In this document: positions 13,407 to 60,200 of the stretch, in pieces
How positions within the stretch are numbered: position 1 is the stretch's first letter
How the letters are laid out: each line of letters opens with the position of its first letter
Virus record (IMG/VR): IMGVR_UViG_3300024239_000017
Source of the DNA: a virus
Length of the DNA: 64,000 nt
Reading direction: 5' to 3' (one strand)
Notes under the pieces: model-generated
Databases searched by the model: none
Told to the model about the DNA's origin: nothing
Seen by the model: the letters and a program-made list of their open reading frames with translations, nothing else
Translations under genes and position numbers: made by a program

Positions 13407-14833
13407 ATTGTATCATTGTTATTGTAATTGTTAATGTGTTAGCATTTAGGGGGCGTATTGCGCTCCCTTTTTGCATAACATTTATGGCGGTATAATAACA
13501 AAGGTTTAATATAAAAGAAATAAAAAAACTAGACATCATAGACCTAATAGTATCATTCATACTTGTACTAATACCTTTAACAATAGGAGTATTATTATGC
13601 TATGTAATTATGTTTCATTTATTAATACTTGTAAAGCTAGTGTTAATCGTACTGGTTTCAATTGCGGTGGTTAGATTAACCGCTATACTATTAATTCAAA
13701 GAGAGTAATTTGTATGGTGATTATATCCAAATTGCGAAATTCGCAATGAAAAATGCGTGGGGTTGGGATTTTTTGGTCTCAACCCTAGTGCATTTTGGCA
13801 TTTTTAGTAATACCTATTATTTAAAATGTAATTAATTGTGGGATTCATTATGAATTTAATAATTAATCAGTGTGTAATTAAGTAGTTTTTGGGTGTATAA
13901 TAACGTATTAAAATTTTAAAATTGTATTTGAAAAATTATTTTTTAAAAAATGTAACACGTTGATACAGTGTGTGGTAGAAGGAATTTATCCCCCAAACAA
14001 ATTTTTAAACAAGGACTTTCCTCACTCAACAACGCTTTAATATTATACACTATTTAACCCCAATCAACAATCATGCAAAATAATACACTTATCTTATTGA
14101 AAACAATTAGATACCTTGTAAGTATTCTATATTACAGTGATACTGCTAAAGCACCTGTATTGGATATTATAAATCGTTGGATTGAATACGAGAAAAAATA
14201 TAACTCTTAAATAACATTATAATTATTAAATGTTTATATATTGCCACGTTATATATATTAGCACCTACTAAGGGTACATTCTTTAGTAAGTTTATGCTTA
14301 TTAGTGATGATAGGTTAGAATGTAGTTATGGGTATAGTTATAATTAATAAATACCTATTTTACTTTGCGGTTTTAAAAAACTTAAACAATTTTCCCAAAT
14401 AAAACTAACTATGAAAGTAATTGCATACTCTTCAGAACTACAATATATCTATTTAAATAATAATGGATGTCTTGTATCTATTCAAACTAATGAATCAAAA
14501 TCATTTTTAAAAAATGTGTTTGGTAATTTACCTGATGTTCCTAATAGAACAGAAGCAGAAAAATTATTGAATATATAATTGTAAAACATATAAATAATTT
14601 AAAGGATAAACTCCGTAAGACCAATGGAAGCCATTACAAAGTACAAAGGCAGTTGAAGTTTATCCTTTTTTAATTCTTATGAAACATATTAAAAAAACAG
14701 ACAATAGAAATAAATATTTCTTAGTTAAAAGTTTGTTTAAAATAGTAGACGCTTTAGTAACATTATTATCATTAGGATATTATTGGTCTGACTTTGAGTA
14801 TAATTACGTCAAAAAAACAATTAGTTAAGTAAC

Positions 14834-15295
14834 ATGGAAAAGCTAGTAGATATATTAATGCTACCTACAAATACAAAAACAAGTGTATTAAAGGTATATT
14901 CTGATGTAAATAAGGTTTTATACAACCTAAGATATAATGCGGAAAAAAATGATGATTATAAAGAATACCAACATCTTTATTTATTATCTAATGAGGAGGT
15001 TAAAGAAGGAGATTTTTGTATGTCATTTCCAGAGCAATTAAATCCTAACAATATTCATATATGTATAGATAGTGATTGTAAATTACACAAGTGTATGAAA
15101 ATCATTGCTACTACTGATGAATCATTAGGTTTACCAAAACCATCAAATAAATTCACAAAAAAGTTCTGTGAATACGGAGGTTTAAAAGTATGCTCAGTTA
15201 AACTTGATTATATACATACTGACTTTGCACCAAATGGTTTTGAAACATTTTTAAAAATAACCAGTGATAACACTGTAGTAACAAATTTGGATTAA
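14834..15295 (+). CDS. Hypothetical protein, paralog of the N terminus of 39795-40568
   Basis: Shared LPT/QHLY..S.EE.K.GD/KII.TTD..L motifs. Confidence 0.7.
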   Translation: MEKLVDILMLPTNTKTSVLKVYSDVNKVLYNLRYNAEKNDDYKEYQHLYLLSNEEVKEGDFCMSFPEQLNPNNIHICIDSDCKLHKCMKIIATTDESLGLPKPSNKFTKKFCEYGGLKVCSVKLDYIHTDFAPNGFETFLKITSDNTVVTNLD

Positions 15296-15296
15296 C

Positions 15297-15584
15297 ATGG
15301 AAAAAGTATTCGGTGGAGTAAATCATAATGTAGAATTCCCTACATTTGATTCTATAGAAAATTTTGTATATGACGGTTTATTTGTAGAAAGTAAAAAAGG
15401 TTTTGCAAAATACAAAGTAGTTTCGTTAGTAGAATGGACTAACGATTCAGGAATAGGTAAGTTTTTATGTAGCGATGGTAAAGAAAGATTAATTCCGTCT
15501 TGCCAACTAACAAAAGAATTTTTATCTAAATTTCCTAAAAGAAATAGAAATGGAGTATTGTTTGGACAACCTAGTAAATCATAA
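15297..15584 (+). CDS. Hypothetical protein
   Basis: ORF in operon. Confidence 0.65.
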   Translation: MEKVFGGVNHNVEFPTFDSIENFVYDGLFVESKKGFAKYKVVSLVEWTNDSGIGKFLCSDGKERLIPSCQLTKEFLSKFPKRNRNGVLFGQPSKS

Positions 15585-15588
15585 CAAA

Positions 15589-15822
15589 ATGAAAAAAATA
15601 TCATTGCTATTATTAATTGTTATTGTAACATTAATTAATTGTTCACACTCAACAAACAATATAGTATTAGAAGTACATTTTGATAATAATAAAGTAGATA
15701 CTTTATCTAAGAGAGCTTATACTTATTTTTTAATCGACGACAATTTATATTTTAAAGACGGTTTGGGAAATAGTAATCAAGTTGCAAATGGTGTAAAGTA
15801 TATAAAACAGTTAAACCATTAA
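15589..15822 (+). CDS. Putative lipoprotein
   Basis: MKKISLLLLIVIVTLINC signal peptide ending in Cys. Confidence 0.55.
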   Translation: MKKISLLLLIVIVTLINCSHSTNNIVLEVHFDNNKVDTLSKRAYTYFLIDDNLYFKDGLGNSNQVANGVKYIKQLNH

Positions 15823-16732: not shown

Positions 16733-17076
16733 AAGATTTAGATTTAAATAATTTACAGAAATGTAGATATAAAGAATATGATAGTAGTATAGTTGAGGGT
16801 TATGTATTAGCTAAAAGAGATTCAAAAAATCATTATTTAGTATATACCATAAATGGTAATAGGGGTCATAGCGGTGCTGGTGATTATGAAGGTATTCAAC
16901 AAGATGGGTATAACTTTTATATTACAGAAAAAGAGTTTAAATTATTAAGAAATGACAGCAAAATGTGGTATGTTTCAGAGGATTATTTTATAAATATAAT
17001 TGAAGTAGAAAACAATACTACTAATATCATCACAACAGTTGATGAAAACGGTAAGATACTTATAACAAAAGACTAA
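16729..17076 (+). CDS. Hypothetical protein (GHxG/WYV family)
   Basis: Paralog of 17081 and 17769. Confidence 0.7.
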   Translation: MKDLDLNNLQKCRYKEYDSSIVEGYVLAKRDSKNHYLVYTINGNRGHSGAGDYEGIQQDGYNFYITEKEFKLLRNDSKMWYVSEDYFINIIEVENNTTNIITTVDENGKILITKD

Positions 17077-17080
17077 CATT

Positions 17081-17422
17081 ATGAACAAAGATATAATTGG
17101 AAAATATTGTGAATTTTATCTAGACGACGGTTCTGACGAAAGAGAAATAGGAAAAATTATAGGTTTCAATCCTAATAATAATGATGAGTTATTAGTATAT
17201 GTTACTTCTAGTGATATAGGGCATAGTGGTGATTATTATGAATGGTTGTTAAGAGAAGGATGGGAAATTGATATACTTGAAGAACTATTTGAATTATTAA
17301 GAAAAGATAATAGATTTTGGTATGTTATTAGTGATTTATTTATTGGATTTGTAGACAATGAAATTTTATCAATAGAAACAACCGTAGACGAATCAGGTAA
17401 AATAATTATAACTAAAACTTAA
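17081..17422 (+). CDS. Hypothetical protein (GHxG/WYV family)
   Basis: C-terminal TTVDESGKIIITK. Confidence 0.7.
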   Translation: MNKDIIGKYCEFYLDDGSDEREIGKIIGFNPNNNDELLVYVTSSDIGHSGDYYEWLLREGWEIDILEELFELLRKDNRFWYVISDLFIGFVDNEILSIETTVDESGKIIITKT

Positions 17423-17427
17423 ATATT

Positions 17428-17766
17428 ATGAAAAGAATATTTGCACAGCATTCACACTTTGGTAAAGTAGAAGTTTTAGCTTATGATACTATCTATGATT
17501 CAGATACATGGGTATTAGTTGGTTTAGATATGCCTAGAGGACACAGTGATTATGGTATATTAAACGAACTACAAATTATTAGTGACGTAGAAACAATATA
17601 TAATTATGCTAGTAAGTCTAAACTTTATTGGGTAGAACCAGATGATTTAATTTATCCCGATTCCAAAATAATAGATGTTGTTTCTAAAGAAAATGAAGAA
17701 CCTAAACAATCGACTACAAAACTATTAAGACAAAAAAGTTTTGTAAAAATAGACCAAACAGTTTAA
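17428..17766 (+). CDS. Hypothetical protein (FGKVEVLAY family)
   Basis: Paralog of 16244. Confidence 0.7.
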   Translation: MKRIFAQHSHFGKVEVLAYDTIYDSDTWVLVGLDMPRGHSDYGILNELQIISDVETIYNYASKSKLYWVEPDDLIYPDSKIIDVVSKENEEPKQSTTKLLRQKSFVKIDQTV

Positions 17767-17768
17767 AT

Positions 17769-18122
17769 ATGTATACTATAGATATTTTAAATAAAACTTG
17801 TAGATTTGTAAACGAGAATACTGGTTCTGAAGCTATAGGAACAATAGTAGCTTTTAGAAACAAACCCTGTAAAGAATTATTAATAAATTTTTTAGAAGGG
17901 GATGAAGGTCATATTGGCCCAGAATATGATTTTTTGAAAAAAAATTCAAACGATTGGAATATTTTGATGACAAATGATGAGTACCAAAAGTTAAGAGATT
18001 TTAATAATCTGTGGTATGTAAATGAAGACCTAGTAATTAGTATTGAAGAAAGTAATGACAATAAACAAACCATACAAACATCAGTCGACGAATCGGGTAA
18101 AATAATTATAACTAAACTTTAA
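17769..18122 (+). CDS. Hypothetical protein (GHxG/WYV family)
   Basis: C-terminal TSVDESGKIIITK. Confidence 0.7.
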   Translation: MYTIDILNKTCRFVNENTGSEAIGTIVAFRNKPCKELLINFLEGDEGHIGPEYDFLKKNSNDWNILMTNDEYQKLRDFNNLWYVNEDLVISIEESNDNKQTIQTSVDESGKIIITKL

Positions 18123-18139
18123 ATATAAAATCGTGTATT

Positions 18140-18430
18140 ATGAAAACATTTTCAAGTATTTTCAACGCAACTAAAGAAAACCTAAAAGCAGAAAAAGCTC
18201 CTTTAATTAGAAAGAAAAATGAAAGAGCTGTAGATGCTGCTATTGACTCTGCTCTAGAACAAAAGATTGACGCAGAAGAAGAACTTTCAGCGTCTTTAGA
18301 AGTTGTAAGAGAAGGTAAGGTCATCAACGTAAACAAGGTTTTAGAACTTCGTCAAAAAATAGACGACTGTGATAAAACTATCGAAGCATTAAAAGAATTC
18401 AAAACAGAATTCTTTGCAGAAGAAAAATAA
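18140..18430 (+). CDS. Coiled-coil protein, similar to 24035-24376
   Basis: Heptad-rich; strongly biased codon usage. Confidence 0.7.
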   Translation: MKTFSSIFNATKENLKAEKAPLIRKKNERAVDAAIDSALEQKIDAEEELSASLEVVREGKVINVNKVLELRQKIDDCDKTIEALKEFKTEFFAEEK

Positions 18431-18471
18431 AAATAAAATAGGTTTATAATAGTATAAACCTATTTTTACAC

Positions 18472-18543
18472 GGCTCGTTCGTCTATCGGTTAGGACACTT
18501 GGTTTTCAACCAAGCAAGAGGGGTTCGATTCCCCTACGAGCTA
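18472..18543 (+). tRNA. tRNA-Glu(TTC), second copy
   Basis: GGCTCGT/ACGAGCT, CTTGG-TTTTCAA-CCAAG. Confidence 0.92.
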
Positions 18544-18557
18544 CTAAAAATTACGTT

Positions 18558-18800
18558 ATGAAAATAATTAGAAAACTATTTTACAACGAAAATACTAAGG
18601 TATATTCGGTAGAACTAGGGGAGAGTAACAAAGAAGTTACTTTCACTATTGATGACGTGAAAAGTTTAAATACTTATATAAACTATTATGGGTATACATT
18701 TTGTTATATAGCATTAATAAATAATGAATATTATTTATGTAGCGCAGAAGAAACAAAACAAGGTGTAATACTCAGAGAGTTATTAGAACAATTAGATTAA
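18558..18800 (+). CDS. Hypothetical protein
   Basis: ORF. Confidence 0.6.
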   Translation: MKIIRKLFYNENTKVYSVELGESNKEVTFTIDDVKSLNTYINYYGYTFCYIALINNEYYLCSAEETKQGVILRELLEQLD

Positions 18801-18825
18801 TTCCTCACTCAACATTTAAAATATT

Positions 18826-19044
18826 ATGAAAGTAAAAAACTTATTTTATTTAATTACAACTTTATTATTTGTAATAGGGTTGTGGCAAGTAATCTCAAAC
18901 TTTAAAAGTATGGGAGAAGATGGTCAAGTTTTCTCAATTTTAGGATTGGTAATTCTTTTCATAGGAGTTCTAGTCGGTTTGATTGAATTTTTAAGTGAAA
19001 ATTGGGATAGAAAAATAAGTTTCAAAAATTTTTTTGAAAGGTAA
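18826..19044 (+). CDS. Small membrane protein with two TM segments
   Basis: Two hydrophobic segments. Confidence 0.6.
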   Translation: MKVKNLFYLITTLLFVIGLWQVISNFKSMGEDGQVFSILGLVILFIGVLVGLIEFLSENWDRKISFKNFFER

Positions 19045-19101
19045 TTTGATTTCATACAACGTATATAGTAAGAGTTATATCTATTTTCTCTTACTATATA
19101 C

Positions 19102-19358
19102 TAATTTAATGCACCATTCTCATGTAGATATAAAGACTTCTTAGTGCTAAATTTCGGCAGTTAGTAATGTTTAGTCATAAACAGCTAAGATGTGAAACTA
19201 CCTAATTAATTATAGAGGTTAAATGCCTTATCTGAAAAGTAACTGTCAGATATATTGATTAGTTCCCAAGGATGAGCAATTGTAATAAGAGAGAATGATA
19301 AGCTCTATATGAGTGAGTAAATTAAATACTTGTTACAATTGAGTGCAGAGGGGTATTA
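19102..19358 (+). ncRNA. Twister-like ribozyme with a large insertion
   Basis: TAATGCACC(19107)...TTCCCAAGG(19263)...TGCAGAGGG(19344), with matching P2, T1, T2 and P4 pairings. Confidence 0.55.
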
Positions 19359-19775
19359 TATAAAATAACTTGATAAGATTATTGTTTAGAAATAAATGTG
19401 TTATATTATATAACGTAATAATCCGATGTCAGCAATGCTAAGTTATCTCAACAGTTCTCGCCTAAGAGTCGCCAGAGTTCTTATAAGCATTTTTAAATTA
19501 AACGGAAATGAAAATAGCATTAATAAAAGATTCAGAAAATAAAACAATAGGTTATACTATTGAAGGAGAAACAAAAGATGAAAAATTAATTGTTAATTCT
19601 ATTAGAAATATGCACTTTTTTGGTATAAATGATAGTGAAATAGTTTATGATGGTAGATAAAAAAATCCAAATGAACCAGATTACGCAGGTAAATTAATAT
19701 TTAAACAAAAAAGTCATGCAAATAGTTAGTATTACAGATATACAAGAAACGTCTAACTTATTATGTGACTTACAA

Positions 19776-19849
19776 AGCCTTGTAACTCAGTTGGTTAGAG
19801 TACCTGACTCATAATCAGGAAGTCGTGGGTTCGAGCCCCACCGAGGCTA
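19776..19849 (+). tRNA. tRNA-Ile2/Met(CAT)
   Basis: AGCCTTG/CGAGGCT, CCTGA-CTCATAA-TCAGG. Confidence 0.9.
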
Positions 19850-20022
19850 CTAGTATACTTGAAATGATATATAGTATATGAAATTCCCGCTTTCGGTACC
19901 ATGTTACTGATATAAATAAATTTATCCTTTCCAAGAGTGGGTGGGTGTAGGAAAGGATTTAATATTTATCGAACTTGCTTTAAAAATAAATGATTACTTA
20001 ACCTTTTTAAATAAATAAAATT

Positions 20023-20592
20023 ATGAAAAAACTATTATTAGTAGTATTCACATTGTTACTTTCAACAATATCTTTTGCACAAACAGATTCAACATTTCTA
20101 TCTAAAGTAGAAACAAAAGCCGTGACAAACGTAGATCAATTCATTACAAAACATCAACCTACATTTGACGAAAAACTAGGGCAATTGTGGGAATTTGCAA
20201 AAACAACCACTACCTCCATGTACGAAGCGTTTGTAAGATACTTAATTGTAAAAGATTCTTATCCAATTATGCTTTGGTTGGTGTTCTTATTAGTATCTTA
20301 TATACTTTACAGCAGGTTAAACAAATTTGTAAGTAAAAATAATACTTTGTTTGACAGCCTAAGTACTAGTGAAAAATTCACAGAATATGAGAGGATGATG
20401 GTAGAACATAGGAATAATTATAGAAAAGTTCTAAACATGTTGTATAATTCACTACCTACTATTCTAATATATTCTGCCTTTGTTTATACAGTAGTAAAAA
20501 TAGTACCTTATATTTACAATATTGTACTTCTACTTATCGCTCCTGAAGCAAGAGTTTTAATCGAAATAACTAACATCTATAAAAGTTTGTAA
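20023..20592 (+). CDS. Membrane protein with signal peptide
   Basis: MKKLLLVVFTLLLSTISFA-Q followed by TM segments. Confidence 0.7.
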   Translation: MKKLLLVVFTLLLSTISFAQTDSTFLSKVETKAVTNVDQFITKHQPTFDEKLGQLWEFAKTTTTSMYEAFVRYLIVKDSYPIMLWLVFLLVSYILYSRLNKFVSKNNTLFDSLSTSEKFTEYERMMVEHRNNYRKVLNMLYNSLPTILIYSAFVYTVVKIVPYIYNIVLLLIAPEARVLIEITNIYKSL

Positions 20593-20594
20593 AA

Positions 20595-21401
20595 ATGTCA
20601 GGAAGCCTTTATAAAAACGTAGATAAAAAAAGAGTTTTAGCAGAACAAGCTGCTAAAAAATTAGAGTCGCTGTCGATTGGATATGACCCAATAAATGCTG
20701 TAAAGTCAGACTTAAGACATTCAACTGTATTAGAAAAAGAGGCTGAAAGTATTCATAGAGAGAATATAGAAATTAACGCTCTTTCAAAAAAATACGGAGG
20801 AAGAGTAATAGATAGAAAAGATTTAGCTCATTATATACTATCTTCAAACATGGTTTTAAGAGAAGTATCTCATTATAAAGCTGATTTATCTAAAGAAGTT
20901 TTAACTGCAATTAAAGATTTTGCTGATAAAAACGGAATTGATTTGAGAATGTATTCTAGTAATTTTAAAATACTAGCTCCTAAAAAATACTTTAACGAAA
21001 AAAATAGAAAGGTAGATAATGTAAAACATAATGTTTATTATTTACCAGCAGAAAATGGCGGATGGGACACTGATAAATTTGTAGAAGTATATGGTTCAGA
21101 TTTTGAATACGGATTTTTTGCACCAATTACAGAAGCATTTTCAGTAGAAACCTACAATGAGCGTAATATAGTGCCTGGATTAAGTATACTATTTACAATA
21201 TTCAATGTAATAATGTTTGCAGCTTTTATAGCAACAGGTTTTGAGGTATTAAGTATTGGAATTATGTTTTTTTACCTTATTATCAATGTAGTATTGTTAA
21301 TAGTAATAACAGTTTTTTATAACGGGATATTTAAATCAAAAGAATATTTAAATGATATAAATATTAAAGACGTATTAAGAGAAGGACAAGGAAAAATATA
21401 A
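20595..21401 (+). CDS. Hypothetical protein with two C-terminal TM helices
   Basis: Hydrophobic C terminus. Confidence 0.7.
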   Translation: MSGSLYKNVDKKRVLAEQAAKKLESLSIGYDPINAVKSDLRHSTVLEKEAESIHRENIEINALSKKYGGRVIDRKDLAHYILSSNMVLREVSHYKADLSKEVLTAIKDFADKNGIDLRMYSSNFKILAPKKYFNEKNRKVDNVKHNVYYLPAENGGWDTDKFVEVYGSDFEYGFFAPITEAFSVETYNERNIVPGLSILFTIFNVIMFAAFIATGFEVLSIGIMFFYLIINVVLLIVITVFYNGIFKSKEYLNDINIKDVLREGQGKI

Positions 21402-21405
21402 AGTT

Positions 21406-21705
21406 ATGAAAAAAATAGCATTGCTAATATTATTTATTGTTTTAGGTTTTTCAACCCTTGCTTGGAATATCTCTCCACAAGAAACAGTAATCGTAGAAAA
21501 AGAATTAGAAACTAACATCGATACGGAAGATGCTTTCAAAAAGTATAAAGTAGTAGAAGATGATGATTTCAAAATGATACCAAAAGTAGACGTATATAGA
21601 AGGTTTAAATATATTAAAGAAAAATCTATAGTTCCTTTTATATACAAAAAAACTACTTTTGTAGAATCTTCTACAGTGATAGAAGAAAACAATTGTGGAT
21701 GTTAA
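21406..21705 (+). CDS. Secreted hypothetical protein
   Basis: Signal peptide. Confidence 0.6.
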   Translation: MKKIALLILFIVLGFSTLAWNISPQETVIVEKELETNIDTEDAFKKYKVVEDDDFKMIPKVDVYRRFKYIKEKSIVPFIYKKTTFVESSTVIEENNCGC

Positions 21706-21809
21706 TACTCCACACTCAATAAACTATGTATGTGGTGTGAAGTCTGCACCAACAACTTAAATCTCAGTAAAAGAGCAGATAACTGAAGAGCCACACAGTT
21801 TATAATAAT

Positions 21810-22303
21810 AAGGCTAAACATTGAACCTTTGTAATCAAGAGAAAACGTAGTGGGGCTAGCCTACTTTAAATCAAATTTAGACATTGATTACATAAAGATA
21901 CTAATCCTGAATTGACAGGATAAATTTTAGTGCAAAAAATTAAAGCAAATGGGAGAGGTACACTCCACTAATTTTTGGAGTAATCCTAGATGTGTTGTTC
22001 CCTTGAGAAAGGAATAGTTATAAAATAAGGTGATTAATTTCCCTTTTTAGAGAATAGATATGACAAGTGCTTATCAGCTATCTCACAACACAAATGAGCT
22101 GCTATCCGTGAGGACGCAGGTACAGAAATGTACTTCTCAGCAAGTAGTTAAACGATGTGTAACAGAAAGAACTATGATAGGAAGAACCTATACGTTGAAA
22201 TCTTAGTACTTAACTACGTGACCCTACTCTTATAAACTTCCAAAGACACGAAACAGAAATGTGGATACCGTGCAAGTCAATATAAGACAAGAGGGTGCTA
22301 AAA
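21810..22303 (+). ncRNA. Large unidentified structured RNA, copy A
   Basis: Seven blocks conserved with 41982-43136, separated by variable hairpins; no ORF. Confidence 0.75.
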
Positions 22304-22396
22304 CTTTTATAAAGTCAATCATGTAAATTGGCTAGGATATTATAGAAAAATTCTTAGCCAATTTTAAAATTAATTATTAATATAAACAATAATACA

Positions 22397-24010
22397 ATGG
22401 CTAAATATAGATTTAAAACCGAAGAGGAATTTAAAGCGGAGGGATTATGGAATTATAAATTAGAAACTCCAAATAAATGGAATGATGAAGGAGAAATGGA
22501 TGAATATCTCGGGAAAGATATTCCTGATAAATATAATAGTAAATGTGATAGCAAACAATCATTCGTGTATGAAGGCTGGTATTTTAATGAAAATAGTTAT
22601 GTATTAAAAGAAAAAGAAGAAAAAGTTCTTCGATTTAAAAAAGATAAGTGGTATCATTATAAAAAGGGAAAAGGGTATTATTTAAGAAGTGATAGAGATA
22701 GTGAAGATATTATCCATTATTCAGAGTACATTTATCCTTCTGATAATGAACATGAATATCAAATTAATAGTTATGATAATGAGTATGTTACAGATGAAGA
22801 AGTACCTTTAGAAGAAGTTAGAAAATATCTTCTTAAAGGACATCCTGATAGGTTTAAAAAAGATTTAAAACTTAAAGATAATGTATGGTATGAAGTTACT
22901 TTGAGTCTTAAATTTAAGCATGTTTTTAAATTTATTGGGTATTATAAGCCAGGTAAAGTAAGTTTAAAGGAAGGTCATTATGATATTAATGGTGGTAGAT
23001 GGGTAAATGCAAACTGTTTTGATTTTGATTCAATCACTGATATTAAAGAGTTATCAGTAGAAGATATTCAACAATATTTACCTGAAAATCATCCAGATAA
23101 AATTACAACTCCTAAATTTGAAAAAGGAAAATGGTATAAATGGTATCAAAAAAATCATGGCTCTTTTCATTATGGTAAATTTGATAGCATTATTAATACT
23201 TCTATGAAAATGAAACCTTGGATCAGGCACTGTGATTCTTATAATGAAACAGGTAGTTTTGATATAAATAGTGCACAGCAAATTACAGAAGTTTCTTATT
23301 CAGAAATCGAACAATTTTTACCAGAAGACATGAAAGAGACTAAAGACTTTCCTAAATATTGGTTTGTAAAAAACAATAAACAACCAGAACTATTAGATTA
23401 TGCAGGTCATATTAGTAAGGAGAGTCCTAAGTGGTGGGAAACATATCCTTATATAGGTTATGACGGTGTACTATCTTGTAAAGGAATACACGGTTGTGGT
23501 ACTCATGCTTTCATAAATAACGCTATAGAAGTATCATTTGAAGATTTTCTTGAAAATGTATATTATGTAAAATTTCCTGAAAAAAGAAAACAAAAATCAG
23601 AATTTGTTTTACCTGAAAAATGGTATACTAAACCAAAAACAAATGAAGAAAAGGATGTTCTTAATAAATTTGTAGTAGATTTAAAAGATAATCATTGGAA
23701 AATTGAAGACAAATATTCCTATGAACATACACCACATTTTAAAAATGGAAATTATCAAAGATCTACATGGATTGGATATGAAGATAATGACTATACTGAA
23801 ATTACTTTTGAACAGTTCAAAAAATACGTTTTGAAGGATAAAAGTGTCTCTTCAACAGATACAGTCAAATATGTTATGACTGCATCAGAAGAAACAGAAT
23901 TTGTTTCTAGTGTAGTAGAATTGACACCTGTTTATATTTTAAATGTAGAAGATAGTAAAATATTACCATTACCAAAAAGTATAGAATCAGTAAAAACAAA
24001 ATTAAATTAA
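22397..24010 (+). CDS. Modular hypothetical protein with internal repeats
   Basis: Repeated F.K.KWY...I..YLP..HPD and PEKW...EITFEQF modules. Confidence 0.75.
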   Translation: MAKYRFKTEEEFKAEGLWNYKLETPNKWNDEGEMDEYLGKDIPDKYNSKCDSKQSFVYEGWYFNENSYVLKEKEEKVLRFKKDKWYHYKKGKGYYLRSDRDSEDIIHYSEYIYPSDNEHEYQINSYDNEYVTDEEVPLEEVRKYLLKGHPDRFKKDLKLKDNVWYEVTLSLKFKHVFKFIGYYKPGKVSLKEGHYDINGGRWVNANCFDFDSITDIKELSVEDIQQYLPENHPDKITTPKFEKGKWYKWYQKNHGSFHYGKFDSIINTSMKMKPWIRHCDSYNETGSFDINSAQQITEVSYSEIEQFLPEDMKETKDFPKYWFVKNNKQPELLDYAGHISKESPKWWETYPYIGYDGVLSCKGIHGCGTHAFINNAIEVSFEDFLENVYYVKFPEKRKQKSEFVLPEKWYTKPKTNEEKDVLNKFVVDLKDNHWKIEDKYSYEHTPHFKNGNYQRSTWIGYEDNDYTEITFEQFKKYVLKDKSVSSTDTVKYVMTASEETEFVSSVVELTPVYILNVEDSKILPLPKSIESVKTKLN

Positions 24011-24034
24011 TATTAACTTTAAAATCAAAAAAAA

Positions 24035-24376
24035 ATGAAAAATTCAAAAAATTTCGTACAAGCAGTAGAAGCAAAATTAAAAGGAGAAGATGCGTCAACC
24101 GTAGCTAAAAAAATTCAAAAACAAGCAGATTCTGCTTTCAAAGCACATATCGCTAGTCTTACAGGTGATACAATTGCATTGGAAGACGCAGTAGAATCAG
24201 CTCAAGAAGCATTAGATAATGCTAGAATCAACAACGCTCGAACTATTTCTAATAGAAATCAGTATGTTCAAAGTTTAGTTGCTGCAAAAAATAATTTAAC
24301 TGCTGCTGAAAAAGCTCTTAAAGATCATAAGGATACTATCGCATTCTTAGAAGAGCAACACGAATACATCAAATAA
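24035..24376 (+). CDS. Coiled-coil protein
   Basis: Ala-rich heptads. Confidence 0.7.
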   Translation: MKNSKNFVQAVEAKLKGEDASTVAKKIQKQADSAFKAHIASLTGDTIALEDAVESAQEALDNARINNARTISNRNQYVQSLVAAKNNLTAAEKALKDHKDTIAFLEEQHEYIK

Positions 24377-24406
24377 ACAAATAAGCACAGTTATCTGTGC
24401 TTATAA

Positions 24407-24480
24407 GGTCTTGTAACTCAGTCGGTTAGAGTACCTGACTCATAATCAGGAAGTCGTGGGTTCGAGCCCCACCGAGACCA
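24407..24480 (+). tRNA. tRNA-Ile2/Met(CAT), near-duplicate of 19776
   Basis: GGTCTTG/CGAGACC; body near-identical, with compensatory changes in the acceptor stem. Confidence 0.9.
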
Positions 24481-24504
24481 CTAAAACATTAACTCCACAC
24501 TCAA

Positions 24505-25380: not shown

Positions 25381-25388
25381 TAATGGTA

Positions 25389-25459
25389 GGTGCCATAGCT
25401 CAGTAGGTAGAGCTGTGACGACGGTCATGAAAGCATAGGTTCGAACCCTATTGGCACCA
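25389..25459 (+). ncRNA. tRNA-like element with a 4-nt loop instead of an anticodon
   Basis: GGTGCCA/TGGCACC-A, canonical D and T arms, TGTGAC-GACG-GTCATG. Confidence 0.75.
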
Positions 25460-25463
25460 CAGA

Positions 25464-25735: not shown

Positions 25736-25758
25736 AAAAGACTAACATTATTTAATAT

Positions 25759-26541
25759 ATGAGTACTAAAGTAAGAACTAGAGTAGCACCCTCGCCGACA
25801 GGCTTTTTTCACATCGGTACATTGAGAACTGCTTTATTAAATTATTTATTTGCAAAAGCAAATGACGGTGAATTTATCTTAAGAATAGATGATACAGACC
25901 AAGAAAGAGGAGACCAATCTTTAATAGATTATATCCACACTCAAATGAGTGATTTTAAGTTACAACATGATTTAACGTTTCAACAATCTGACAGATTAGA
26001 CAGATACAATGAAATTGCTAGATTGATAGGTACCTTAGAAAGTGATGGTAGTATTTCTATACAAATGGATGGATACACTATGGGATTAATCAGAAGTAAT
26101 GGTTTTCCTTTATATAATTTTGCAACAGTAGTAGATGATTTTGACTACGATATTACACATATTATAAGAGGAGTTGACCATATTTCAAACGCACAAAAAC
26201 AAAAAATACTATGGTATAAAATTGCTGACGCTTTAAAAAGCACTAAACAGTTTCCTGAGTTAATACATGCAGGATTATTATTAGACGGTAAGACAGGTAA
26301 AAAAATCTCTAAAAGAGATGGTTCTGGACTAGTATCAGATTATTCTGACTATAAAAAAGAAGCTATATTAAATTGGATTCTAAAGTTAGGATGGTCACAC
26401 AAAGATTCAAAATTTGACAAACATTATCCAACATTAACAATCGACCAAATGGTCGAAGTATTTAACGGTGGAAAAATCAACCAATCTAATGTAAAAGTAT
26501 TTATAGATAAGTTAGATTGGTTTAACAAGAAATTTAAATAA
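25759..26541 (+). CDS. Glutamyl-tRNA synthetase-like protein, catalytic domain only
   Basis: RTRVAPSPTG..HIGT, LRIDDTD, YNFATVVDD, IIRGVDH, KISKR; ends before the anticodon-binding domain. Confidence 0.88.
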   Translation: MSTKVRTRVAPSPTGFFHIGTLRTALLNYLFAKANDGEFILRIDDTDQERGDQSLIDYIHTQMSDFKLQHDLTFQQSDRLDRYNEIARLIGTLESDGSISIQMDGYTMGLIRSNGFPLYNFATVVDDFDYDITHIIRGVDHISNAQKQKILWYKIADALKSTKQFPELIHAGLLLDGKTGKKISKRDGSGLVSDYSDYKKEAILNWILKLGWSHKDSKFDKHYPTLTIDQMVEVFNGGKINQSNVKVFIDKLDWFNKKFK

Positions 26542-26569
26542 TTATTCAACCTTTATTAATTTTTTTATC

Positions 26570-27187: not shown

Positions 27188-27228
27188 TAATAAAAAATCC
27201 CACTTATATTGAGTGGGATTTTATACTT

Positions 27229-27299: not shown

Positions 27300-27326
27300 C
27301 AATTAATTAACTAAATTTATTATATT

Positions 27327-29027
27327 ATGACAAGAAAAATCTTATCAAAAGAAGAATTAATGAATCTTAACGGAGAGTTAGTTTATATTTCCATGTTAAA
27401 TGGGGAAGATACTTCGTTTTTTTTACAAAATGATTTCGAAAAGTACAAAGAACCTGCTTTAGTATTTGTACAAGATGAAAGAGTGTATTTATTAAACAGT
27501 GCCATATCTGGATCTGTTCCTCAAAATTTCAACTTTGAAAAAAGTATTTTCAACAGATCATATGTATATGATGAGGATATACTTTGTACTGAAATGTATG
27601 AGAATGAAAAAGATATTTACATTGAAAGAATAAAAATATATTCCACACTCAATGGTGGAGAAGATTTATATTGTGACGGTGAATTTGGTAAAGCAATGCA
27701 TTTAACTTCTCATGGTATTACTTTTTCAAGTAACTCGCTTTTAACATTGAATACAGACTTTTTTCCTGTAAATTTTGATGAAGTAGAGTCTTACTTTAAA
27801 GGAATATTGGACTCAAAAACTATTACTGAAAAGGAAAGAGCCAATATTATAAAATCAATAAAAGGTAAAGGTCATCCTAAAAATTATTTACCTTCATTGC
27901 ATTATAGAGGAATAATTGTTTCAACTTCATTAAACAAACTTACTTTTAATGGTTTTGGTAATAATTTAAATGATTTATACAATATTAATATAGAAACAAG
28001 AATCTTCAAAGACACTATAAAAACTGTAAGAAACTACAGTGAGGAAACTTTAACGGCAGTGTTAGATAAAAGATTCATTATAAGTAAGTCTTTTAATTCT
28101 ATCATCAAATCGGTAGATCAAAATGTACATGATTATCTTTCTCGTGAAGAAAATAATACAGGAATGCAGTTTATTTCACTAGATTTAACTGAAAAGGTTA
28201 TTAAATTTTTGCCTAAAAAGAAAAATCTAGTATTAGATAAAAATGTAATTACTGAAAAAAACTTCCAAACTACAAAACCTCACAAGTTTTTTACTGCTGC
28301 TTTAAAAGGATTTATGAGTGAATACGATATTAAAAAATTCGTAGATACTTTATTAGCATATAAAGATCCTTATGTTATTAAATACTTCAGAGGTAAAAAA
28401 ATTGCAGAAAACTACTCAAAACTAAATACAAGAGAATGGGCTACAACATCTTGTATGGATAGAAAAGCAGAAAATTTCTTTGAACTTTACACGGATAAAA
28501 AATTCAGATTAGGTGTAATATTCAGAGATAAGGAGCAAGTAGGTAGATTCCTAGAGGTAACTACTGATGAAGGTCTTGTATATAACGATAGAGTTTATTA
28601 CAAAGATGAAGCAACATTAGCTTGGTATAATAGATGGGTAGATACAAAAGGTCTTACTAGAAAAAAAGACAATACTTATACTAATAAAACCCAGTTTTAT
28701 AATGTTAAAAAAGGTTCTTTTACACAAACTGTAACTGTAACACTTAGTAAAAAGTTAGAAAAAATAAGAATTTATCCTTATTTAGATACCTTAACATACG
28801 GTAGAGATAATAAGTTAACTAATTATCATGATAATAAAATTACCTATACCTTTACAAATACAAACGGTAAGTGTGAAAGAAATAACATGGTTTTAGATGT
28901 TATCACAAATGAGTATATCCACAATAATTATGCTGTCAGAATAGATTTCGGTCAACATGCTGGTAGAAGCACTACAGTAGAAAATCTAGTATATTCTTCA
29001 ATCAACGGAGGACATTGTTTAAAATAA
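27327..29027 (+). CDS. Phage protein with SCM/DRVY/PYLDT motifs
   Basis: Motifs in the C-terminal half; adjacent to a peptidase gene. Confidence 0.7.
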   Translation: MTRKILSKEELMNLNGELVYISMLNGEDTSFFLQNDFEKYKEPALVFVQDERVYLLNSAISGSVPQNFNFEKSIFNRSYVYDEDILCTEMYENEKDIYIERIKIYSTLNGGEDLYCDGEFGKAMHLTSHGITFSSNSLLTLNTDFFPVNFDEVESYFKGILDSKTITEKERANIIKSIKGKGHPKNYLPSLHYRGIIVSTSLNKLTFNGFGNNLNDLYNINIETRIFKDTIKTVRNYSEETLTAVLDKRFIISKSFNSIIKSVDQNVHDYLSREENNTGMQFISLDLTEKVIKFLPKKKNLVLDKNVITEKNFQTTKPHKFFTAALKGFMSEYDIKKFVDTLLAYKDPYVIKYFRGKKIAENYSKLNTREWATTSCMDRKAENFFELYTDKKFRLGVIFRDKEQVGRFLEVTTDEGLVYNDRVYYKDEATLAWYNRWVDTKGLTRKKDNTYTNKTQFYNVKKGSFTQTVTVTLSKKLEKIRIYPYLDTLTYGRDNKLTNYHDNKITYTFTNTNGKCERNNMVLDVITNEYIHNNYAVRIDFGQHAGRSTTVENLVYSSINGGHCLK

Positions 29028-31453: not shown

Positions 31454-31491
31454 CAAATAAATATTCCACAATCAAAATAATTTATAATCAC

Positions 31492-34412: not shown

Positions 34413-35257
34413 TGAAAATTAGAACAGATATATCAGCAAATTATAGAGCTGTATTTTTCAACGGTAAAACAATTAGACAACGTATTGATAATTCAAAACC
34501 TATTACCACACCAAAGTTTGCAGAAATAGAAGATGTAGCTATTAATTCGAAGTGTTTAGCGAATTGTTCTTATTGTTATACTAACGCACTCAAAACAGGC
34601 TCAAATTTCACAGATATTATTGAAAAGGTACACAAGGTATGGGGAGTAAGAGATGAGAACGACAAACCTTTCCAAATAGCTATAGGAGGCGCAGGGGAAC
34701 CAACACTTCATCCGCAATTCAAAGAATTTGTAAAAACAGTAAAAGAAGTAGGTATAATGCCTAATTACACTACTAACGGAATGCATCTATCTGAGGAAAT
34801 TCTACAAGCAACAGAAGAGTATTGTGGCGGTGTAGCTGTAAGTTTTCATCCGCATATTGAAAAAGTTTTTTATAAAGCTGTAGAAACATTATCCACAATC
34901 AACACTAGACTTAATTGTCATGTAATAATTGGAGATGAAAAATCTTTGGTAGATTTACAAAAAATGTATGATAAGTATTCAGACGTATTAGAATACATTG
35001 TAGTTCTTCCTTATCAAGCAGTAGGTAGAGCAAAACAAATAGAAACAGAAGAAGTTTGGAAAAAAACTTTTGAATGGATTAATACAGTTAATTCACAACA
35101 ATTTGCCTTTGGTGCGTTATTTTATCCTTATTTACAAAATAACGAGGTAGAATTAGATATAGATGTTTATGAACCTGAAATCTATTCTGGTTATAGAATA
35201 TTTGATGATAGTTTTATGCATCTAAGACATTCGTCTTATGACTTAAATTTTAAATAA
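34412..35257 (+). CDS. Radical SAM protein
   Basis: CLANCSYC, GGAGEPTLHP, YTTNG. Confidence 0.9.
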   Translation: MKIRTDISANYRAVFFNGKTIRQRIDNSKPITTPKFAEIEDVAINSKCLANCSYCYTNALKTGSNFTDIIEKVHKVWGVRDENDKPFQIAIGGAGEPTLHPQFKEFVKTVKEVGIMPNYTTNGMHLSEEILQATEEYCGGVAVSFHPHIEKVFYKAVETLSTINTRLNCHVIIGDEKSLVDLQKMYDKYSDVLEYIVVLPYQAVGRAKQIETEEVWKKTFEWINTVNSQQFAFGALFYPYLQNNEVELDIDVYEPEIYSGYRIFDDSFMHLRHSSYDLNFK

Positions 35258-37735: not shown

Positions 37736-38036
37736 ATATATCTAGAAAATAATATAAGTTTAGACCTTATTTAACAAAAGATCAATATAATAAAATATTA
37801 GCATACATTGTAAAAATTGAATTATGATAAAAACAATAGGTTTTTGGTTAGGAGTAGACGTGTTAGGATTTTCTAACGTACATTTTCATACATTAGTGTA
37901 TAAAAATGAATTACTTCCTAAAATAATAAATATTCCTACTAATAAAAAGTTAGGCACCAAATTTAATACAATAAATATAAATAGAAAAATTCTTCCTATC
38001 AAAGATAGAATAGATTAACTCCACACTCAAAATATT

Positions 38037-44364: not shown

Positions 44365-44396
44365 TTTGCATATGTCAAAAAATTTTTGTATGTTTG
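44365..44396 (+). promoter_or_regulatory. Bacteroidota-type promoter (repeated 32-bp unit)
   Basis: TTTGCATATGTCAAAAAATTTTTGTATGTTTG. Confidence 0.82.
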
Positions 44397-45236: not shown

Positions 45237-45842
45237 ATGATATTAAGTAAAAAATATGATTTAGAAAATCTACTAGATGTAAACTTTCCTTTCAAAATAT
45301 CTGATATAAATAAAGATGATGGTTTATTTTATTTTAAAATAAATGACGTTCAAATGTGTATCAGAAATTATGAAGTATATAATAATTTTGGATATTATTT
45401 AAAAAGATATTTTGACCTTCACTCAGGAAATATTTCTGAGAGTTTTAATTTAAATGAAGTTAATAGAAACATATATTTTAACGGAGACATGACAATATAT
45501 GAAACTTTAACTGATGTAAATATTACAATAGAAGAAAAATACTTATATGAAAGATTTCAAAGTTATAGTCCTAAATGTTTTTGGGGTACAATTATATCAC
45601 CAAATTATGTTAATATAGGACAAAGAAAAATAATAAAAGCAGAATACTCTCCACACTCAAAAGATAAAATGACAACTAAAGTTCTAGTGCAACCTGAAGG
45701 AGTGAATTACGAAGAATCGTATTTTGTATATATTGATAAAAAATTCAGACCTTCACATGAAACTAAGATATTACATAAATTTGTAAATGACAAGGGTATT
45801 TTACACTATAAAAAAAGTTTCTTTAACAATTGGGTTTATTAA
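45237..45842 (+). CDS. Hypothetical protein
   Basis: 201-aa ORF. Confidence 0.65.
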   Translation: MILSKKYDLENLLDVNFPFKISDINKDDGLFYFKINDVQMCIRNYEVYNNFGYYLKRYFDLHSGNISESFNLNEVNRNIYFNGDMTIYETLTDVNITIEEKYLYERFQSYSPKCFWGTIISPNYVNIGQRKIIKAEYSPHSKDKMTTKVLVQPEGVNYEESYFVYIDKKFRPSHETKILHKFVNDKGILHYKKSFFNNWVY

Positions 45843-45843
45843 A

Positions 45844-56574: not shown

Positions 56575-56892
56575 ATGAATATGGAATATATATCAACAAT
56601 GAACTTCACAAGTTCAAAAGGAAAAAAGTATTACAGAGGAACTGTAATTAATAACAGTGAGTATTTATTACTTAATTATAACGATAGACGTATGTTTAAG
56701 GTAAAAGAAAGTTTCAATAACGATTCAAAAAATAACGATAATTATTTAAATGGGACTACAGGATCTTATTATGATTATTCTAGTCCATCTTATGACAATT
56801 CAAGTAGTAGTAATAACGATTCTTCATCTTCATTTGACGGCTTCGGTGGTGGAGGCGACTTTGGAGGTGGTGGAGCAAGCTCAGATTGGTAG
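56575..56892 (+). CDS. Hypothetical protein with a Gly-rich tail
   Basis: GFGGGGDFGGGGASSDW. Confidence 0.65.
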   Translation: MNMEYISTMNFTSSKGKKYYRGTVINNSEYLLLNYNDRRMFKVKESFNNDSKNNDNYLNGTTGSYYDYSSPSYDNSSSSNNDSSSSFDGFGGGGDFGGGGASSDW

Positions 56893-57141
56893 ATATGATT
56901 GATTACATTATAATATTTTTACTGTACATATACCTATTGTAATAGTGTATTTTTCATTTAGAAGGATGTATATAAAATCTGATATTACTAGCAATAGTAT
57001 AATATTAGATATAATACTTATATTTTTACCTATTGTTAATTTATTCTTATCTTTAATTGTAATAGGAACCTATTTAATGAACTTAGATTTTTCAAATATT
57101 AATAAAAACTTTTAAAGATTTTTTACTTTAAAAGATAAATT

Positions 57142-57184
57142 AAAATCCCCCAGATTCCTTAATTGGAGTTTGGGGGATTTTTTT
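57142..57184. terminator. Bidirectional terminator at the convergence of + and - transcription
   Basis: AAAATCCCCCAGATTCC-TTAATT-GGAGTTTGGGGGATTTTTT. Confidence 0.85.
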
Positions 57185-57243
57185 GTTTCTACTCTTCGCT
57201 AATTTTTTAAGATGGACTGAGGAGACGTTTAATGTTTCCACAC

Positions 57244-60200
57244 TCAATAAAACTTTTTGCTTAAACTGTTTAAAGCATTTCTTATTTCTCCACCTCTCTG
57301 TGCATAATTTGTATTATTGTTAGAATTATTTTTAGCAATATTATTCATCATCCATATTATGTTCTGTTTGAATTTTTCCTCACCTTTACGAGTATCCTCG
57401 TCATTATCCTTCATATAATCAGGTTGATTATAACTATCACTTCCTTTAGTGGCATTTATAAATTCGTATACATCAGGATACATTTCTCTTAATAATGAAT
57501 TACCACCACCTTGCTTATTTAACTCTTTAAATTTATTAAGATGTTCTTCTGTAAAATCTTCTTTGGAAGCATCATAAATTCCTTGATTTTTAAGTTCTTG
57601 TCTAAAACTTTGCATTCTAGCTAAATACTCTGTAGGATTAGAAGTATAATCAGTTACTATAGGTCTATCATAATCTGTACCATTAACTTTGAATCTAATA
57701 TTATTGAATTTTTTAGATATAAAAGAATCACTAAATGGTTCATAGTTATCAGGATTATCAAATTCTTGCCCCGCTCTAGTAAAAGCATCATCTTCTTTTA
57801 AATACTTTTCAGTATCTGTACTTATAGGTAACATTCTATCTATAAATTCACGTTCTTTTTTGAAGTATGGATCCAATAAGTTTTTTGCCAATCCTTCACT
57901 ATTCATTCCGTCAGGTCTATTACCCCTAGTTCTATTGATAATATCTATCAATGTTTTTGTAGGCATGTCTACTGTACCGTCAGTAATAGCATGTGATATT
58001 TCATGGGTAAAAACACTAGGATTAAGTTTCGAACCCTCTTTTGTAACTTCTATATTACCTGCTTTTGTTGGATGTATTCTATAATTATATTTTTCATCAT
58101 TTCTATAATCATTTTCTCTTGCATAAGTTACACCTAAAGTACCCTTTTCATTATTGATATTATCTACTATACTGATATTTTTTGAAGCATTTTGAAAATT
58201 ATTCTTTCTATTCTCATATAATCTATTAATAGTTTCTTCATCAGCATTAGGATATTCTTTTTTAAGCCTTTCTAAATACTTCGGTGAATTAATGTATTCT
58301 TTAAACCAAGCTACCTGTTGATCTTTATTCATTGGCTTCTTACCTCCTAATTGTGCATACCACATATTGTTTTCTGTTTTTCTATTATCTACTATATTAT
58401 TCAATAACCAAACAGCATCGTCTTGAGAGTTTAATATATTGAGTAATTCTCCTGAATTAGCTTCTATTAAAGGTTTATTGTTATTTTCTCCTGGTTTTTT
58501 ATAATTATTTAAAAACTTAGTTAAATGTTCTTTAGTTATAGGAGATTTATAAGGATCTACAATACCACTATCTTTAAGTTCTTTTCTTAGAACATTCAAT
58601 CTGGCATGTACTTCTGTAGGATTACTTAGGTAACTTCCTGAATCATCTCTAACCCTAGATAAAATATCCTCTACATCATTTCTGAGTAATAATTGATTTG
58701 CTCCTGTAGATTGATGAGTACCTTCATGTAATATAACATTTTCTGGAGCCATTCTTCTAGTTACAATATTGCCATATTTACTATTTGGACTAGTATAAGA
58801 AGTTCCTTGAAGGTCTTTGTTATTAAATCTTTCTCCCCTTTTTCTTGTATATGAATTTGTCGATTTTAATAAATCTTCTGCTGTAGATATTTCCAAATTC
58901 TGTCCACTAATTCTATCTAATCTAGTAGAAAGATTATCTACACCACTTTGCCCTTCTCTTTTAAAGGCTATTTTATTAGCCATAGGAGATTCTAACCATC
59001 CTTTCAAATAACCTATTTCGTCTGTCTTTAACATGGTTTGGGGTTTCAATACCCCATTAGTGTCAGAATATTCCCATTTTGATTCTGTAATCCCTCCTTT
59101 CTGAAATTTTGTAAGTAATTCATTTAAAGAATTTCTAACATTTCCTCCTAATTTTTTTCTAGTAACAGTAATTTCAGGGTATTTAATACCTCTATCGTCT
59201 ATAGAAGCCTTAGGTAATTTCTTAACACTTTTAGAATTTATACCATCTATTAATGAGTTTATCTCTTTTAATATAAGCTTCTCATCTAAATTAGCTAAAT
59301 CTGGAAATCCTGCACTATTTAAATACTTATACCCGTGATAATTAACGTCTATCATGTCATTTGTAATACCCCTGTCCACTAATTTAAGTGTCATAGGATA
59401 ACTATCGCTAGATAGAGAATTCGCTGGTAAAAAAACTTTTCCTTTTTCTGATGAATTTACTTTATCGTATGCTTTTTTAAGCTTAGCCATTGGATTTAAA
59501 TTCTCTCTTTTATACAAAGTTGGCATTAATTCTTCATCGTATTCTAAAGGCTTTCTTTCTATGAAAGGTGAAACTTTTTTATTAATATTTGATAATAAGC
59601 TATTACTATTAGTTTCAGTAGTAGGAACTCTTAAATTTCTAAATATAGGAGTTATATGTTCGACTAAATCGTCTTCGGAATATAAAGGTATTCTTGTATC
59701 ACTAATTATTTCTTCTACATTTTGTTTACTTATAGGTTGTTCTTTTAATGCTTTAAGTCTACTATTTAAACTATTTTTATCAAAACCTGTAAGTAATATG
59801 AATTGGTCATCATTTAAATGAGAAGAATTTTTAAATACGTCTTCTATTAACTTTGCATCACTATATAATTCACCTGAATTAACAATACTTCCTACATTTC
59901 TAACTGTAGATAATAATTTCTTTTCTCCATGTGAAAGACTCTCAGGTTTATTCAAAAATTTAAACTCTAAAGATTTTACTAAATTATTTAATTCTTCTTT
60001 AGTACCTACTTTATTTTTAAATAGTTTTGCTAAATCGTCAGATACTCCTGCGGCTGGAACTACTCCTAATAAATTTACAGCACCGCTTATCGTGTGCTTT
60101 CCAGCACCTTTAAAATTCCCTTCTATTAACTTTTCAGGGATTGTAACTACGTCTTTTGCTCCCTCTATTCCAGAATCAATCCATGATAATGGGTTAGCTA

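Follow-up and report, generated by a model that had tools for sequence, protein, structure and literature searches.

A strand-specific 11-mer in one 43-kb block of a phage genome, shared with diverged relatives: candidate programmed nick sites

The phage genome and the motif block

We analysed a 64,000-nucleotide stretch of the IMG/VR virus record IMGVR_UViG_3300024239_000017 (hereafter the window, meaning the whole stretch) and an 11-mer in it, TCCACACTCAA, that recurs on one strand only. The genome of this uncultured phage is large and AT-rich, with about 28% GC, and the window holds 28 tRNA or tRNA-like genes together with a permuted transfer-messenger RNA (tmRNA). Its gene models are our own crude calls of open reading frames (ORFs), backed by Pfam or PHROG matches where these are given. 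The genes follow the + strand from position 1 to about 57.1 kb and the - strand from 57244 onward. Functions could be named for ThyX, a family A DNA polymerase, NAMPT, PRPP synthetase, RtcB, an MT-A70 methyltransferase, a radical-SAM enzyme and a Glu/Gln-tRNA-synthetase-like protein; in the block from 14 to 57 kb, the majority of the proteins are without known function. This block is flanked by two hairpins:

13448..13468, + strand: terminator-like hairpin that closes the upstream block (tRNA, ThyX, DNA polymerase) just ahead of the motif block
57142..57181, no strand assigned: 17-bp hairpin flanked by an A-run and a T-run at the right end of the motif block, probably a bidirectional terminator

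A scan of the window recovered 13 copies of the motif, 7 exact and 6 with one mismatch, all on the + strand between 14019 and 57247:

14019..14029, + strand: copy 1, TCCTCACTCAA, one mismatch; intergenic and first of the block, about 550 nt past the terminator-like hairpin 13448-13468, with an ATG 43 nt downstream (14073)
15642..15652, + strand: copy 2, TTCACACTCAA, one mismatch; in the signal-peptide-like N-terminus of ORF 15550-15822
18802..18812, + strand: copy 3, TCCTCACTCAA, one mismatch; intergenic, 1 nt past the stop of ORF 18558-18800, with an ATG 13 nt on (18826)
21709..21719, + strand: copy 4, exact; intergenic, 3 nt past the stop of ORF 21406-21705 and followed by an ORF-free stretch; orthologous site at L027:4486
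24494..24504, + strand: copy 5, exact; intergenic, 12 nt past a tRNA-Met (24407-24481) and abutting the ATG (24505) of a 291-aa ORF
25934..25944, + strand: copy 6, exact; in the Glu/Gln-tRNA-synthetase-like gene 25759-26541, codons 59-62 (ATC CAC ACT CAA)
27642..27652, + strand: copy 7, exact; in the 566-aa ORF 27327-29027, read as TCC ACA CTC AAT, where TCC and CTC are rare codons
30881..30891, + strand: copy 8, TCCACACTCAG, one mismatch; in the signal peptide of ORF 30839-31336
31465..31475, + strand: copy 9, TCCACAATCAA, one mismatch; intergenic, with an ATG 16 nt downstream (31492)
34892..34902, + strand: copy 10, TCCACAATCAA, one mismatch; in the radical-SAM gene 34412-35257
38020..38030, + strand: copy 11, exact; fills an 18-nt spacer, 1 nt past a stop (38018) and with an ATG 6 nt downstream (38037)
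45650..45660, + strand: copy 12, exact; in an unverified 201-aa ORF (45237-45842), with the MT-A70 methyltransferase start 126 nt downstream (45787)
57237..57247, + strand: copy 13, exact; at the convergence point, 56 nt past the 17-bp terminator hairpin, overlapping the stop (57244-57246) of a convergent 1141-aa gene; kept in the strain relatives L030 and L031

An over-represented motif on one strand

The first-pass annotation of this DNA had reported the same 13 sites, and every coordinate and sequence was reproduced. Seven copies are intergenic (14019, 18802, 21709, 24494, 31465, 38020 and 57237) and six lie within ORFs (15642, 25934, 27642, 30881, 34892 and 45650), in line with the mixed placement described there. 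The annotation had put the number expected by chance at well under one copy. Indeed, dinucleotide shuffles predict 0.02 exact copies and a second-order Markov model 0.006, where seven are present; at up to one mismatch the shuffles predict 0.83, where there are 13. These counts rule out a chance origin. Once the words of tRNA T-arms are set aside, TCCACACTCAA is the most over-represented k-mer of the window.

The strand bias is just as strict. Where the first pass had noticed no exact reverse complement, we found no - strand copy in the window even at one mismatch. Its observation that copies were missing before 14 kb also held: upstream of 14019 there is none at up to one mismatch, and a single match with two mismatches, at 2891. 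Within the window, then, neither of the outcomes that the annotation had named as refuting its claim was seen, since the motif is enriched over a Markov background and occupies one strand. Allowing two mismatches throughout adds just two matches on the + strand and one on the - strand, a chance-level gain, and the motif is therefore sharp. Conserved bases end at the edges of the 11-mer, with only a weak AT-rich stretch upstream; the end of a repeat or mobile element was ruled out, as nothing is conserved beyond the 11 bases. TCCACACTCAA contains no G and is unstructured.

The copies are confined to one block of about 43 kb. There are none in 1-14 kb, and the 16-kb convergent block, as seen in the strain relative L030, has none on either strand apart from the junction copy (equivalent to 57237).

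Conservation in diverged relatives

Four diverged genomes (L023, L025, L027 and L029) were found through homologues of the 566-aa ORF, at 40-56% identity. Per 20 kb, each of them has 6-9 copies, without exception on the coding strand. In the window and these four relatives together (146 kb), the core TCCACNNTCA has 39 occurrences, every one of them on the coding strand and none on the other, with about 0.07 expected per locus per strand. The positions of the copies are mostly not orthologous between the window and its relatives, and the dominant variant differs by genome: TCCACACTCAA (...CTCAA), TCCACACTCAT (...CTCAT), TCCACAATCA (...AATCA) or TCCACCCTCAA.

Intragenic copies fall in all three reading frames and are written with rare codons (TCC, 3.4% of Ser; CTC, 1.6% of Leu; ATC, 7% of Ile). 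In the synthetase-like gene, for example, Pro-Thr-Leu is encoded as CCC ACA CTC in L023 and L029 but as CCA ACA TTA in the window. Because of the three frames and the rare codons, a motif at the protein level was ruled out, and the 11-mer is a signal in nucleic acid. It is kept by selection at the nucleotide level and is common to the diverged relatives.

Beyond these genomes, a 16-mer scan of IMG/VR returned only single, chance-level matches, and IMG/VR protein scans with the DNA polymerase and with an alignment of the 566-aa family returned no relatives. Deposited phages gave no DNA or protein match to the motif block or the junction gene, and a scan of JGI metagenomes with the junction protein gave an N-terminal fragment only. 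The motif is also absent from phi14:2 and from the gut Epsilon crAss-like phage crAssE-Sib, which rules out a general crAss feature.

The host appears to be of a Bacteroidota type, judged solely from homologues of a TonB-dependent receptor gene in two relatives. This gene (Plug and beta-barrel) is full length in the motif block of L029 (3130-5043) and runs off the locus in L023 (1-40); it is 42-53% identical to receptors of Bacteroidota metagenome-assembled genomes, among them Chitinophagales-like genomes, Saprospiraceae and Porphyromonas. OmpA and ABC-transporter genes are present in L023 as well.

Spacing along the block

Spacing is more even than random. Pooled over the window and the four relatives, the coefficient of variation (CV) of the intervals is 0.67 against 0.93 in simulations (P=0.006), with a median interval of 2.5 kb and few intervals below 600 nt. 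In the window, the first 10 intervals have a CV of 0.41 and all intervals together one of 0.85: the copies are dense and even at first and then thin out.

A polar word at such a spacing might be one that the host reads, and the first-pass annotation had proposed a signal of the Chi or KOPS type. Strand polarity and a spacing of about 3 kb, similar to the density of Chi, would suit a word for RecBCD/AddAB or FtsK borrowed by the phage. Known Chi sequences are G-rich, and so is the reverse complement of TCCACACTCAA. However, five Bacteroidota genomes of 3-9.8 Mb, among which the host's own may not be included, contain only 0-4 copies each, the same as a reversed control word; moreover, the motif is restricted to one block of the phage, and we know of no Chi or KOPS word as long as 11 nt. 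The proposal was thus given up as very improbable. Since the motif stands at control level in these bacterial genomes, whatever reads it is likely phage-encoded.

Programmed nick sites as a candidate function

We tentatively favour the view that the 11-mer is the site of a phage-encoded, sequence- and strand-specific enzyme, most likely a nickase, that makes programmed interruptions in the + strand. The physical cutting is proposed by analogy with model phages. A nickase would cut the + strand at each copy, and virion DNA would then carry about 13 nicks within the 43-kb block. Here the + strand is the coding, non-template one, and nicks in it would thus not block transcription of its genes right after injection.

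Nick sites had been among the functions suggested by the first-pass annotation, next to the Chi/KOPS-like signal and a binding site for a phage protein. This suggestion gains from the comparison with the nick motif of tf and LUZ24-like phages, 5'-TACT/RTGMC-3' or WACTRTGAC (PMC3517423, PMC11780129), to which our motif is the best formal match. The two words are short (9 nt in those phages, 11 nt in ours), sharp and non-palindromic, with 13-14 copies; each is restricted, with its near-variants, to one strand (13:0 in the window and 39:0 for the core in five genomes); each is found within genes as well as between them, for the most part on the coding strand; and each clusters in a single arm of a genome with a convergent layout, here with none in 1-14 kb or in the 16-kb convergent block. 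The intervals are alike as well, with CVs for the first part and overall of 0.45 and 0.87 for the published nick positions of tf and 0.41 and 0.85 here. The tf word TACTGTGAC and the LUZ24 word TACTATGAC differ by a one-base shift between phages of little nucleotide similarity, and our relatives, at 40-56% identity and with 6-9 copies per 20 kb, show small consensus shifts too. In tf and LUZ24-like phages the nicks are physically proven, whereas here the motif is known from sequence, and sequence, phage group and host phylum are all different.

Programmed nicks are also known in T5, and for phage Rembedalsseter a drop of read depth nearly to zero has been shown on one strand only. A further nick motif, CGACNNNNNCCTA/CTCCGG, is found in phiKMV-like phages (cited in PMC3517423, PMC3604761). 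It is likewise conserved, on one strand and at intergenic positions, but has 3-4 copies per genome, lies on the non-coding strand and belongs to a longer, bipartite recognition sequence.

Several observations weigh against nick sites, above all the placement of the copies relative to genes, which is not indifferent to gene borders. In counts pooled over the window and the four relatives (45 copies in the intergenic test, 44 in the test of distance to the next start), 15 of 45 copies are intergenic where 5.7 were expected (P=2e-4), and for 8 of 44 the next start is no more than 20 nt away (1.8 expected). In roomy spacers, the motif stands at most 5 nt from the end of the upstream gene in 5 of 10 cases, against 0.57 expected. 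The LUZ24-like motif, in contrast, is found in coding sequence in 88% of cases, which equals the coding density and leaves no intergenic enrichment, while a third of the copies here are intergenic and adjoin gene ends. This placement is not disqualifying, since the phiKMV-type nick motif is intergenic and the feature is thus not universal in the family. With nick sites, the bias can be explained only indirectly: an 11-mer fits more easily into non-coding DNA, and compaction would push it against the upstream gene. In addition, nick sites leave the absence of copies from 1-14 kb, where the + strand is coding too, unaccounted for. TCCACACTCAA is also the only candidate transcription signal found in a block nearly devoid of host-type promoters, another difference from tf and LUZ24-like phages, and a block lacking these promoters needs some other signal. 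Finally, we identified no nickase gene, although no search was aimed at one. As for nucleases in general, the block yielded just one, an HNH endonuclease gene (42409-42894), which stands in an otherwise ORF-free region (41682-43152). No nickase gene is named for the tf and LUZ24-like motifs in the accessible literature.

Placement near gene borders and the case for a promoter

A transcription signal had not been among the options of the first-pass annotation. Given the closeness to gene borders and the scarcity of host-type promoters, it is a serious rival: the motif could be a promoter or re-initiation site for a phage-encoded, non-host RNA polymerase serving an early-type block, possibly an injected virion RNA polymerase as in crAss-like phages. 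We consider this doubtful, and it is the main rival to nick sites. Transcription would then start at or just after the motif, and the copies that abut an ATG would yield leaderless or very short-leader mRNAs.

Every copy is co-oriented with the genes, and the enrichment reaches beyond the figures given above: 12 of 44 copies lie within 50 nt of the next start (4 expected), and the median distance is 167 nt against 309 nt by chance. The position right past an upstream gene's end in roomy spacers is what a compact promoter would show, with a leader, tRNA, tmRNA or non-coding RNA downstream. Two further copies stand 9-12 nt after orthologous tRNA-Met genes (24407-24481 in the window; 9 nt in L027), with different content downstream. 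Exact-consensus copies are intergenic, and thus mostly compatible with a promoter, in 8 of 14 cases, against 7 of 31 variants. Copy 1 comes after the terminator at the end of the upstream block.

Against this, two thirds of the copies are inside genes, with an intragenic majority in the relatives, and for 12 of 44 the next start is more than 500 nt away; the intragenic copies tend to be shifted towards the gene's 3' end. The distance between motif and ATG ranges from -2 to +16, which gives no fixed leaderless geometry, conservation spans just 11 bp, and the final copy is situated past the block's terminator, facing the end of a convergent gene. Under the nick-site reading, by comparison, deep intragenic copies and a copy beyond the terminator need no extra assumption, as neither matters for a mark in DNA.

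Host-type promoters are distributed in a complementary manner. A Bacteroidota-type cassette, TTTGCATATGTCAAAAATTTTTCGTATGTTTG, has variants at 459 and 3280, recurs at 4499 and 5686 and is found twice in the convergent block. One further cassette lies in the motif block:

44365..44396, + strand: host-type cassette (-33 TTTG / -7 TAnnTTTG), the only one inside the motif block, within the longest motif-free gap (38020 to 45650)

Generic -33/-7 matches reach 0.36 per kb in the upstream block and 0.18 in the convergent block but 0.02 in the motif block, against about 0.04 by chance; in the blocks of the relatives the figure is 0.07 per kb. This near-absence, and the sole cassette falling in the longest gap, speak for a promoter. 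The seven cassettes (window 459, 3280, 4499, 5686 and 44365 on the + strand; L030:850 and 6867) are near-identical over 32 bp: TTTG, 20 nt, then TATGTTTG. The one at 3280 stands before a tRNA. At 4499 and 5686, an ATG follows 4 nt past the -7 element, which implies leaderless mRNAs; ATG-abutting cassettes of a leaderless type are thus already in use in this genome, a further point in favour of a promoter.

The closest precedent is P23-45, whose two-barrel virion RNA polymerase uses a strongly conserved, AT-rich motif of base composition opposite to that of the genome, at about 14 start sites (PMC10770324). The promoters of this enzyme and of the T7 group come in some 14-17 highly conserved copies (13 here); like them, our motif is co-oriented with genes, contrasts with the genome in base composition, is specific to a class or block of genes and is common to relatives, which in those cases encode the enzyme. 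Those promoters are 15-23 bp long, stand upstream of genes and have mapped starts; here 11 bp are conserved, and two thirds of the copies, read from the DNA letters only, are within genes. No cognate phage RNA polymerase was found among the window proteins scanned. For caution, the nick motif of LUZ19 was the sole intergenic motif that could be detected there, yet it bore no relation to transcript abundance (PMC3604761, PMC3517423), and any such motif should therefore not be called a promoter lightly.

Within the crAss-like phages, the early block of phi14:2 is transcribed by the rifampicin-resistant, injected virion RNA polymerase gp66 (bioRxiv 10.1101/2020.03.07.982082). The layout resembles ours, with about 41-43 kb of co-directional genes followed by convergent genes. 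Its early transcripts, however, have no common upstream motif (bioRxiv 10.1101/2020.03.07.982082), and our k-mer scan of its 41-kb early block agrees, with no comparable over-represented, strand-specific word.

Several other identities were tested. A host sigma-A promoter (-33 TTTG / -7 TAnnTTTG) was ruled out, as the motif is unlike the consensus and the real cassettes elsewhere in the genome are distinct from it. So was a hairpin promoter of the N4 type: inverted repeats are not systematic at the copies, and these sites fold with the same energy as random windows. An intrinsic terminator is likewise excluded, with no conserved stem-loop and with terminator-like sites not tied to the copies.

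Signals in RNA and other polar signals in DNA

The motif might instead act in RNA or during elongation. T4 RegB processes early mRNAs, and the ops element is read by RfaH; the 11-mer could be an mRNA cleavage or binding site of the first kind, through which the messages of the block are processed or shut off, or a non-template pause or antitermination site of the second. This is unlikely in our judgement. It would account for copies on the sense strand of a single co-transcribed block, both at cistron junctions and within genes, as well as for those right past stop codons or 9-12 nt past a tRNA 3' end; even spacing would supply one site per mRNA segment, and a G-free, unstructured sequence would suit such a role. 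But the conserved last copy lies 56 nt beyond a strong terminator, where the + strand should rarely be transcribed, and 11 specified bases would be many for any endoribonuclease or pause site known. Among the proteins scanned there was no candidate RNase and none resembling NusG/RfaH, and the window has no complementary (anti-motif) guide RNA. Pairing with 16S rRNA was ruled out, as the best match to Bacteroidota 16S is 9/11 and 58% of shuffled motifs do equally well. The copies have no Rfam match.

Alternatively, another polar signal in DNA may be read without cutting, such as a Tus-Ter-like roadblock, a recombination hot spot at module borders or a landmark for packaging or ejection. An asymmetric word in strict orientation, evenly spaced in one block, would fit. 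The window DNA is present in 20 public runs (Logan contigs), and among the contigs listed several strain-variant ends or homology breaks lie within about 50 nt of copies, which could reflect recombination but is confounded by intergenic position. That contig-end pattern is anecdotal, no candidate binding protein was found, and we know of no roadblock, hot-spot or landmark system that uses some 13 co-oriented 11-mers. We regard this family of explanations as rather improbable.

Contigs from two DNA runs (X5 and X6) join 17076 to 27229 with 5 other letters between, and co-occurring strains therefore lack or replace a 10-kb segment with four motif copies. Other contig ends within about 50 nt of motif copies are at 18807, 21721, 24480, 24492 and 25900. 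In two DNA and two RNA-type runs, contig beginnings and ends do not pile up, although assembled contigs hide read ends and starts. The highest contig depth in the single true RNA library is over the 21.3-22.7 kb stretch.

Other features of the window and its relatives

The permuted, two-piece tmRNA (25389-25637; Rfam RF04321, 56 bits) directly follows a tRNA-like element and is itself followed by a terminator-like hairpin (25710-25729) and the Glu/Gln-tRNA-synthetase-like gene. This arrangement is kept in L027 (7604-8024), at about 53% marker-protein identity. In the tRNA array, ARAGORN identified a 93-nt tRNA-like gene at 1637-1729 with a four-base anticodon (aagg). The tRNA gene just 5' of the 566-aa ORF switches identity among relatives: it is a tRNA-Glu(ttc) in L025 (9888-9960) and L027 (9408-9480), carries the anticodon TCA, which would read UGA, in L023 (9903-9975), and is tRNA-like with an abnormal anticodon loop in the window (27229-27300).

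In the region 45237-46428, the 201-aa ORF that starts at 45237 shares 56 nt, in a different frame, with the MT-A70 methyltransferase ORF, and the latter covers just positions 109-302 of its PHROG profile. The two could be a split or frameshifted gene.

Discussion

The motif is real: it lies on one strand of one block, is selected, is evenly spaced and is common to relatives. Beyond the first-pass annotation, the one-strand core shared by the whole lineage, the writing in rare codons, the even spacing, the placement at gene ends, the confinement to one block and the near-absence of host-type cassettes from that block are new. Nick sites are the best reading, if a tentative one, with the match to the proven tf and LUZ24-like motif in their favour and the preference for gene borders against them; a promoter for a phage RNA polymerase is the main rival.

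The two might also be combined. In vitro, the virion RNA polymerase of phi14:2, for which no promoter is known, accepts as template only DNA that is single-stranded or denatured (bioRxiv 10.1101/2020.03.07.982082). Nicks in the non-template strand could let the DNA fray locally, and the exposed template would then offer an injected virion RNA polymerase loading points independent of promoter sequence. This combination overlaps both the nick-site and the promoter readings and takes its share from within them; we hold it to be improbable. If true, it would account for an evenly spaced, one-strand mark in a 43-kb block nearly without host-type promoters and for a preference for gene borders that tolerates intragenic sites, and it would give a purpose to the nicks of phage genomes, a question open for about 50 years.

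Whether nick sites or promoters, the motif delimits a 43-kb block that is mostly of unknown function and nearly free of host-type promoters, and it is a simple marker of this lineage in metagenomes. If the copies are promoters, this phage group would gain its first early transcription signal defined by sequence. If they are nick sites, they would give a first indication of such a system in a crAss-related phage of Bacteroidota, would provide a sequence tag to look for in native long-read data, and would widen an unexplained feature of phage chromosomes to a very abundant, mostly uncultured group.

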